A stretch of DNA of 60,874 bases from Armatimonadota bacterium (lineage in GTDB: Bacteria; Armatimonadota; DTGP01; DASXUI01): assembly GCA_036504955.1 (NCBI GenBank), contig DASXUI010000097.1:1-60874 (forward strand), given 5' to 3'. Positions 56,481 through 58,419 of the stretch are shown piece after piece; positions within the stretch are counted from its first letter, which is position 1; every line of letters begins with the position of its first letter. Below the pieces are notes generated by a model. It searched no databases, was not told where the DNA came from, and saw only the letters and a list, made by a program, of their open reading frames with translations. A program made the position numbers and the translations under genes.

Positions 56481-56683
56481 GCAATGCCCCGGTGCTGGCC
56501 ATGGGGATTGAGGACGCGGCACGGTCCGTGGGGCTGAGCTACCAGACGCTCCGGAAGGCGGTGGAGCGGCAGGAGCTGCCGGTGGTCAAGGAGGGGCGGC
56601 GGGTGCTGGTAACGGTCGCTAGTCTGAGGCGCTGGCTGGAGAGCAAAGAGGAGACCTGGCGATGCAGCCCCACCGGAATGTAG
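56477..56683 (+). CDS. xis: excisionase-family HTH DNA-binding protein
   Basis: GTGA-coupled start at 56477 (or ATG 56501). Contains IEDAARSVGLSYQTLRKAVERQELPVVKEGRRVLVTVASLRRWLE. It is the last phage gene, and its stop codon lies inside the arm repeat CCGGAATGTAG. Confidence 0.7.
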   Translation: MSNAPVLAMGIEDAARSVGLSYQTLRKAVERQELPVVKEGRRVLVTVASLRRWLESKEETWRCSPTGM

Positions 56684-56795
56684 CTGTAGGTGTAGCTGTA
56701 GCGGGAGCGCCCCCGGTGGTTTTGGGGGCCTCTCGGAGGTCCCATGAGCGTGAAATCGGGACCTCCGAGAGGGGGTTAACGCTACATGTCGTAGT
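56673..56795. other. attR (phage-side arm repeats, phage terminator, 13-bp core on the groEL stop codon)
   Basis: CCGGAATGTAGCTGT at 56673-87 with TGTAGCTGT at 56679-87 and 56691-99. Core TACATGTCGTAGT at 56783-95 is the reverse complement of groEL ..(G)AC TAC GAC ATG TA(G). Confidence 0.65.
56729..56772 (-). terminator. 15-bp perfect stem-loop directly after the groEL stop (phage-side DNA)
   Basis: CCTCTCGGAGGTCCC (56729-43) pairs with GGGACCTCCGAGAGG (56758-72) around a 14-nt loop. It begins 10 nt after the stop and has no clear U tract. Confidence 0.6.
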
Positions 56796-58419
56796 CGCCC
56801 ATGCCGCCGCCCATGCCGCCAGGGCCGCCGGCCGGGGGAGCCTGCTTCTCGGGCTTCTCGGCCACGAGGCACTCGGTGGTCAGCACCAGGCTGGCGATGC
56901 TGGCCGCGTTCTGCAGGGCGAAGCGGGTCACCTTCACGGGATCCACCACGCCGGCCTTCACCAGGTCCTCGTACTTCTCGGTGAGCGCGTTCAGGCCGTG
57001 ATGTTTCTTCAGGCCCTTGACCGTGTTCACCACCACCGCGCCGGACAGCCCGGCGTTCTCGGCGATCTGGCGGAGGGGCTCCTCCAGAGCGGCGCGCACG
57101 ATGTTGACGCCGATCTTCTCGTCACCCTCGAGCTTTACCTTGTCCAGCGCCTTCACGGCCGCCACCAGGGTCACGCCGCCGCCGGCAACGATGCCTTCCT
57201 CAACGGCCGCTCGGGTCGCGGAGAGAGCATCCTCGAACCGGTGCTTCTTCTCCTTGAGCTCGGTCTCCGTGGAGGCGCCGACCTTGATGACCGCAACACC
57301 GCCGGCCAGCTTCGCCAGGCGCTCCTGCAGCTTCTCGCGGTCGTAGGAGGAGTCGGTGTCCTCGATCTGCTTCTTGATCTGGCTAATCCGGCCCATCACG
57401 GCGTCCTTGGAGCCCGCACCCTCAACGATGGTGGTCTCTTCCTTGGTGATGGTAACCTTCTTCGCCTGGCCCAGCATGGAGAAGTCCACGTTCTCCAGCT
57501 TCACGCCGAGGTCCTCACTGATGAACTTGCCGTTGGTGAGGATCGCGATGTCTTCCAGCATGGCCTTGCGGCGATCGCCGAAGCCGGGGGCCTTCACGGC
57601 CACGCAGTTCAGGATTCCGCGAATCTTGTTGACCACCAGGGTGGCCAGCGCGTCGCCTTCGAGGTCCTCGGAGATGATCAGGAGCGGCCTGCGGGCGCCG
57701 GCGACCTTCTCCAGCAGAGGAATCAGGTCGGCGGCGGCGCCGATCTTCTTCTCGTGGATCAGGATGATCGGATCCTCGAGGACAGCCTCCATCCTCTCGG
57801 GGTCGGTTACGAAGTAGGGCGAGATGTAGCCCTTGTCGAACTGCATGCCCTCGACGACCTCCAGGGAGGTATCGCGGCCCTTGGACTCCTCAACGGTGAT
57901 GACGCCGTCCTTACCGACCTTGTCCATGGCCTCAGCCACGACCTTGCCGATCTCGGCATCGTTGCCGGCGATGGAGGCAACGTTCATCACTTCCTCGTGG
58001 CCCGCCACGGGAATCGCCAGGTTCTTGATCTCCTCAACCGCCGCCTCGACCGCCAGGTCGATGCCGCGCTTGATGGCCATCGGGTTCGCGCCCGCCGCCA
58101 CCACCTTAAGGCCCTGGTTCACGATAGCCTGCGCCAGCACCGTCGCGGTGGTGGTACCGTCACCCGCCACGTCGTTGGTCTTGGAGGCCACTTCGCGAAG
58201 GAGCTGGGCGCCCATGTTCTCGTAGGGGTCCTTGAGCTCGATCTCCTTGGCAACGGTCACGCCGTCCTTGGTGATCGTGGGGGAGCCCCACTTCTTGTCC
58301 AGGACGACGTTCCGGCCGCGAGGTCCCAGGGTTACTTTGACCGCCTGAGCGACGGCGTTGACGCCCCGCTCAAGAGCGCGCCGGGCCTCCTCATCGAAAG
58401 CCAGCATCTTGGCTGCCAT
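56782..58419 (-). CDS. groEL: chaperonin GroEL (Cpn60)
   Basis: 545 aa. N-terminus [62 protein letters not shown] and C-terminal [15 protein letters not shown] tail. Confidence 0.98.

Follow-up and report, generated by a model that had tools for sequence, protein, structure and literature searches.

How can a phage genome be inserted at a chaperonin gene and leave the chaperonin unchanged? This question is raised by a DNA stretch of 60,874 bases (called the window throughout the text), a metagenome contig of an Armatimonadota bacterium (DASXUI010000097.1, assembly GCA_036504955.1), in which an intact groEL gene borders directly on a long block of phage genes. It is very probable that a temperate siphovirus-type phage of about 45.2 kb has been integrated there at the extreme 3' end of groEL by means of a lambda-type tyrosine integrase. 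A first-pass annotation of the same DNA had already placed the crossover of such an enzyme within the final codons of groEL, with the protein left intact, and this proposal is supported by an orphan terminator, by the order of the repeats at the two ends and by the fold of the integrase, the bacterial attachment site (attB) itself being predicted.

The 13-mer repeat and the groEL terminus

The 13-mer TACATGTCGTAGT occurs exactly two times in the window, at 11548-11560 and at 56783-56795, both copies being located on the + strand and in direct orientation; the exact search agrees in this respect with the first-pass annotation. The right copy, regarded as the common core of the right prophage junction (attR), is the reverse complement of the groEL 3' end (D-Y-D-M-stop) and comprises the last four codons of the gene and the first two bases of its stop codon. 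The gene itself (56782-58419, - strand) encodes an intact Cpn60 protein of 545 aa (PF00118, E 3e-79) with the C-terminus ..GGMGDYDM and the stop codon TAG. The left copy, regarded as the common core of the left junction (attL), reads AC TAC GAC ATG TA on the - strand and is followed by A, which gives TAA. It is an orphan copy of the groEL terminus, as the sequence upstream of it has no similarity to groEL, and the earlier descriptions of the right copy as the last groEL codons and of the left copy as a second Y-D-M-stop without a gene were both borne out. The third stop base in the lysogen is position 56782 (C on the + strand, giving TAG), and this base would be derived from the phage. The exchange of a native TAA for TAG that had been claimed is read directly as far as TAG in the lysogen and TAA at the left copy are concerned, whereas the native TAA itself is predicted.

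Taken alone, the 13-mer repeat is only moderately improbable. It had no match in 100 dinucleotide shuffles, and a direct match of at least 13 nt between the two end regions (of about 350-500 nt) appeared in 9 of 2000 mononucleotide shuffles (about 0.5%). The weight is carried by the position of the repeat. On the groEL strand, 39-73 nt past the orphan stop, lies a predicted native groEL intrinsic terminator (11475-11508, - strand), composed of a GC-rich stem of 15 pairs and the T-rich tail CUCUUUCU, and the region has no other strong site of this kind. A small hairpin, CTCCCT-GCT-AGGGAG (11532-11546, - strand), stands directly after the predicted native TAA stop, and the groEL genes of relatives have a hairpin within about 20-110 nt downstream. 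The left flank looks like the native 3' untranslated region of groEL, cut off from its gene by the prophage. The distance from core to core is 45,235 bp, which is the predicted length of the phage genome, and the prophage body (11561-56782) contains complete structural, replication, recombination and lysis modules.

It could be supposed that the 13-mer match is due to chance or to faulty assembly, and that the phage region, being either a defective remnant or part of a mis-joined contig, has no functional att sites. Such an explanation can appeal to the metagenomic origin of the contig, to the frequency of 13-nt matches between shuffled end regions and to the fact that the present data contain nothing demonstrating excision. 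Nevertheless it is highly improbable. The attL junction is crossed by an independent JGI contig, Ga0376481_001477 (sample 3300035523), which is 99.94% identical to positions 1649-17202 of the window, and therefore the junction is not an assembly artefact; moreover, a repeat of 13 nt is too short to mis-join assemblies at usual k-mer sizes. The repeat coincides exactly with the end of a gene at one junction and with an orphan terminator at the other, and the phage modules all consist of intact open reading frames (ORFs) with a host-like G+C content at third codon positions (GC3).

The JGI contig ends at window position 17202, within the prophage. It differs from the window by 9 mismatches, all of them at 2213-2354 in one host gene, which suggests local strain variation.

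Integrase and excisionase-like protein

The integrase gene (11649-12773, - strand; PF00589/PF14659, phrog_1) has a longest ORF of 374 aa, other gene calls giving 368 and 312 aa. Its stop codon (11649) is situated 88 nt inside the left 13-mer, and that of the excisionase-like gene at the opposite end (56683) is situated 99 nt inside the right one, in agreement with the approximately 90 and 100 nt given earlier. The catalytic domain is recognised by PF00589 with E 3.4e-20. In an alignment of 52 sequences R215, H314, R317, H340 and Y350 are invariant and K240 is nearly so, and the protein can be aligned with XerA through HxLRHTFAT and the catalytic tyrosine. Judged by its catalytic residues, the prophage integrase is a member of the tyrosine recombinase (phage integrase) family. 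It is about 30% identical to characterised integrases of Mycobacterium and Thermus phages.

The AlphaFold2 (AF2) model of the integrase reached a mean predicted local distance difference test score (pLDDT) of 90.7. Three domains follow one another in it, an N-terminal arm-binding-like domain, a SAM-like core-binding domain and a catalytic domain. The N-domain, with a pLDDT of about 90, is built of strands 19-22, 29-34 and 40-44 and a helix 52-67. The best fold match of the model is full-length lambda Int (1z1b_A, E 4.6e-12, 384 aligned columns), and full-length lambda Int chains 1z1g and 5j0n are among the other top PDB matches. PF02920 was found in the integrase only below the threshold (E 0.024); the N-terminal consensus GSVYxRxDGRW...G.KR is conserved in 51 homologues. 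According to the model, the integrase has a lambda-like N-terminal domain of the arm-type DNA-binding kind, with a three-stranded sheet and a helix.

The gene at the opposite end (56438-56683, + strand) encodes a MerR-type HTH_17 protein (PF12728, E 1.6e-9) with a weak match to the excisionase family phrog_66 (E 5.8e-7). Encoded next to the attachment site, this protein is likely to be the recombination directionality factor (Xis) and is put forward as a candidate for this role.

Candidate arm-type sites and the position of the crossover

The second repeat pair mentioned in the first-pass annotation is present, as is the hairpin at 56729-56772 with its perfect 15-bp stem. When the two end regions were compared for exact matches, the 15-mer CCGGAATGTAGCTGT (11604-11618 and 56673-56687), the 13-mer and the 10-mer GTGTAGCTGT were found. 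The longest and the shortest of these are parts of a single 27-nt pair (11604-11630 and 56673-56699) with 25 of 27 positions identical, and each copy is built of two tandem 12-nt units. On the integrase side, CCGGAA is followed by two tandem units TGTAGCTGTGCG (11604-11633, + strand; 44-73 nt from the core). On the other side, CCGGAA is followed by TGTAGCTGTAGG and TGTAGCTGTAGC (56673-56702, + strand; 81-110 nt from the core), overlapping the stop codon of the xis-like gene. These segments are the candidate P' and P arm-type integrase sites, respectively. The unit TGTAGCTGT is present as two tandem copies per arm (11610-11630 and 56679-56699) and as 5 exact copies in the window; with no more than one mismatch, 14 matches were counted in the window versus 6.6 expected.

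The order of the repeats is the 13-mer and then the 27-mer at the left end, and the 27-mer and then the 13-mer at the right end. A single long imperfect att site made of the 13-mer and the 27-mer was considered and ruled out, the order being reversed between the two ends. As the two 27-mers lie on the phage side of the 13-mer at either end, each arm of the reconstructed phage site (attP) carries one of them, at about -100 and +50 bp from the core. A core flanked by arm-type sites is the layout of lambda- and L5-type attP. Because of this position, and because the integrase has a domain resembling the arm-binding domain of lambda Int, the 27-mer pair probably finds its explanation as arm-type sites; the TGTAGCTGT units are most likely those recognised by the N-terminal domain of the integrase, and the geometry fits. 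A search of the IMG/VR database with the arm-motif pattern gave hits in two unrelated viral contigs only, in both cases to AT-rich coding repeats.

The same 27-nt pair could be taken for the crossover itself. The exchange would then have occurred at CCGGAATGTAGCTGT(nn)GTGTAGCTGT (11604-11630 and 56673-56699), the prophage would extend from about 11604 to 56672, and host DNA would include the hairpin, the 43 nt at 11561-11603 and the two 13-mers, the second of which would have to be regarded as a relic or as coincidental. This repeat is located 18 nt from the int stop and overlaps the xis-like stop, and attP right beside int is a common arrangement. Even so, a crossover at the 27-mer is quite unlikely. 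An empty host site carrying two copies of the last 13 nt of groEL about 180 nt apart would be needed, for which no mechanism is seen, and the orphan stop and terminator at 11475-11560 would become coincidental. Internal tandems of 12-nt units are typical for arm-type sites and not for cores, and an integrase with an N-domain of the arm-binding type needs sites such as these tandems. It had been pointed out in the first-pass annotation that the hairpin and CCGGAATGTAGCTGT following groEL in prophage-free relatives would speak for the 27-mer; neither was found downstream of groEL in 111 other groEL-bearing or pattern-matched loci (L001-L111), all from distant organisms.

Crossover at the 13-mer receives suggestive support from the reconstructed attP, where a 19-bp near-palindrome, ACGCTAC-ATGTC-GTAGTGT, is centred on the core. 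As read from the sequence, its arms are complementary at 6 of 7 positions, versus 3 of 7 in the predicted attB. An attP more symmetric than attB is the usual asymmetry.

Proposed course of integration

In the proposed mechanism, attP would carry the 13-bp core TACATGTCGTAGT, equal to the last four groEL codons and two bases of the stop codon, and strand exchange within these 13 bp would leave the sequence of GroEL unchanged. The phage would supply up to four codons and the third base of the stop codon, with a predicted change from TAA to TAG. The native 3' untranslated region and terminator (11475-11546, now 45 kb away) would be exchanged for phage DNA which begins with the hairpin 56729-56772. 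The predicted attB reads ...GGC GAC TAC GAC ATG TAA CTCCCTGCTAGGGAG..., and the predicted attP reads ...GGGGGTTAACGC-TACATGTCGTAGT-GTCCAGTATGGG.... Two pairs of tandem TGTAGCTGT units, 81-110 bp from the core on the xis side and 44-73 bp on the int side, would act as arm sites. The HTH_17 protein encoded beside attR would direct excision, of which the prophage may still be capable.

Several observations weigh against crossover at the 13-mer. As stated above, a 13-nt match between the end regions may arise by chance; the 27-mer is the longest repeat common to both ends (15 nt exact); and the spacer of the near-palindrome is 5 bp, versus the usual overlap region of 6-8 bp. No empty attB was retrieved from the searched collections, and for this reason its sequence is given as a prediction. 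The circular attP junction was not retrieved either, and both the attP junction pattern and the groEL-end pattern were absent from IMG/VR. The closest GroEL relative, with 85% identity, showed no synteny; another gene follows it downstream, and its 3' flank is unrelated to that of the window. Among the integrases no relative above 38% identity was available to show a recurrent groEL specificity, and in the fetched flanks of the 111 loci no integrase was located beside groEL. To this may be added that groEL is not adjacent to either of the two closest homologues of the integrase (37% identity) and that IMG/VR contained no relative of the integrase.

Other searches for the empty site gave the following results. 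Exact look-ups of the GroEL and GroES proteins returned no record, and for the GH39 neighbour and the T2SSE protein the sole hit was the JGI lysogen contig. When metagenomes were scanned for the degenerate groEL end, 23 contigs emerged, all from other organisms; the left flank of the window, the hairpin and CCGGAATGTAGCTGT were absent from all of them.

The groESL operon and its host

The groES gene (58590-58883, - strand; Cpn10, 97 aa) is located upstream of groEL. It is preceded by a promoter-like pair TTGACA...TAGCAT (59060-59090), and just downstream of this pair, upstream of groES, a controlling inverted repeat of chaperone expression (CIRCE), the operator of HrcA, is found at 59014-59040 (+ strand; TTAGCACTC-N9-GAGTGCCAA, with one mismatch to the consensus). 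Due to these elements groESL is considered to be a heat-shock operon, transcribed toward the xis end of the prophage. In the lysogen the phage-borne hairpin (56729-56772) stands 10 nt past the groEL stop. Since a T tract is missing on both strands, it was not accepted as a canonical intrinsic terminator. It may serve as a replacement terminator or insulator that separates groESL from the early phage genes running towards it, or as a protein-binding palindrome within attP.

A coupling of the prophage to heat shock can be imagined, because the CIRCE-controlled groESL operon runs convergently into xis and the early genes through a hairpin that lacks a U tract. The choice of the site would then be functional: heat-induced read-through of groESL would act on excision or lytic genes by antisense interference, or the hairpin would insulate them, and control of the prophage would be tied to host stress. 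As the 13-mer encodes the conserved GroEL tail and is found verbatim in contigs with unrelated flanks, the same attP might also serve a wide range of hosts. The whole of this idea is speculative and rather improbable.

Of the 120 closest GroELs, 51 have the DYDM tail. An exact copy of the 13-mer, ACTACGACATGTA, is located at the groEL stop in 10 metagenome contigs (L084, L088, L090, L092, L095, L096, L098, L099, L101, L104), the downstream flanks of which are unrelated to that of the window. Owing to the conservation of the tail and the presence of the 13-mer at unrelated loci, the groEL terminus appears to be a stable and well-chosen target, and potential attB cores for this phage are widespread.

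The best GroEL matches are metagenome-assembled genomes of Armatimonadota/Chthonomonadales, with at most 80% identity among GTDB species representatives. The nearest GroEL in a collection of 5.8 billion proteins is 85% identical, and the GroEL of the window forms a singleton cluster. On the basis of these identities and the singleton cluster, the host is placed in an Armatimonadota lineage that is uncultured and lacks close relatives among sequenced genomes. The genes outside the 13-mers are cellular and comprise a GH39-like gene (8606-11305, - strand), a T2SSE ATPase, URO-D, glycerate kinase, groES and groEL. An 88-nt tRNA-Ala(ggc) called by ARAGORN within the coding sequence of the GH39-like gene (9025-9112, - strand) is almost certainly a false positive.

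Comparison with known integration systems

Use of the groEL terminus by a tyrosine integrase without disruption of the gene was implied to be new in the first-pass annotation, and this was an overstatement. Staphylococcal phage-inducible chromosomal islands (PICIs), including Staphylococcus aureus pathogenicity islands (SaPIs), integrate at the 3' end of groEL, where the last 18 bp of the gene lie within the att site and the gene is unaltered (PMC8125051). The element described here resembles these islands in that both an integrase and an excisionase or excisionase-like protein are encoded and the att site overlaps the last groEL codons (18 bp there, 13 bp here). In contrast to the staphylococcal PICIs, which are small helper-dependent satellites of Firmicutes, it is a 45-kb phage of Armatimonadota with its own terminase, portal, major head, tail, tape-measure and lysis genes. 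Classification of the element as a PICI was rejected because a full structural module is present. As the GroEL tails of the two hosts are different, the core sequences of the PICIs and of the present phage must differ as well.

The features shared with heterobivalent systems of the lambda and mycobacteriophage L5 type are a three-domain integrase, a short common core, tandem motifs on both arms (as candidate sites) and an excisionase-like gene beside the att site. Unlike lambda, which has an intergenic target, and L5, which has a tRNA gene, the target here is the end of a protein-coding gene. The statement made earlier on Bxb1 is correct: this phage integrates by means of a serine integrase, and the groEL1 reading frame is interrupted (PMC8092301). 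The gene family targeted is alike in both cases, whereas in the present case a tyrosine integrase is encoded and the reading frame of groEL is complete. As a general rule, in the form in which the citing literature gives Campbell (2003), the 3' ends of conserved genes serve as insertion sites for prophages, which bring a duplicate of the displaced end. The strategy found here is identical in principle to that rule, only the host phylum and the particular phage being new.

The integration strategy is already known at groEL in staphylococci, and the present case leaves the understanding of integration unchanged. Its significance lies in the use of the groEL terminus, with the gene preserved, in a second phylum that is distant from that of the staphylococci, and in a well-delimited temperate phage for Armatimonadota, a phylum with almost no described phages; in the searched literature Armatimonadota, prophage and integrase were mentioned together in only two papers. 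Since the att core is predicted to the base, the candidate set of integrase, attP and attB could become an integration tool.

Gene content of the prophage

Genes were assigned by matches to Pfam and PHROG profiles. In accordance with the description of the interval between the 13-mers as phage in the first-pass annotation, a complete phage gene set was found there, and by these assignments the 45,235 bp represent a complete and apparently intact temperate phage of the siphovirus type. The structural genes comprise the terminase large subunit (39683-41242), the portal (38157-39683), the major head protein (33953-34957), a tail protein (28514-29824), the tape measure (24419-27829) and a tail-fibre-like ORF of 1086 aa (17754-21014, - strand). 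Within the latter, two tandem 108-nt copies with 72% identity are found at 18349-18564. Further genes encode a Gam-like protein, a RecT-like protein, a replication initiator, a DnaC-like loader, a DNA methyltransferase and a D5-like protein. In G+C content the DNA is uniform, at about 0.65-0.70. The prophage is not close to any deposited phage, the major capsid protein sharing 39% identity with one uncultured Caudoviricetes record.

The gene block adjacent to the integrase (13068-16584) contains a GNAT acetyltransferase (13068-13388), a DUF6610 protein (13391-14035), a dockerin-domain protein (14781-15428), a protein similar to regions 2 and 4 of sigma-70 (sigma-70 r2/r4-like; 15425-16042) and the Amidase_2 lysin (16024-16584). 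Except for the lysin, these genes (13068-16042) look like cargo genes, as does that of a BNR-repeat protein located at 44280-45314.

Six iteron-like palindromic units (TTCTCAGAATCTGAGAA and variants, with inverted repeats of 24-32 nt) are clustered at 50110-50305, within the ORF of the replication initiator (49886-50836). By analogy with lambda O, this cluster is probably the replication origin of the phage. A perfect 19-bp inverted repeat, TCCCACAGTTTTGAGTGTC (45804-45822 and 45896-45914, with a 73-nt spacer), is situated where the leftward and rightward gene blocks of the phage diverge, and this structure (45804-45914) could be an operator or another regulatory structure of the lysogeny switch.

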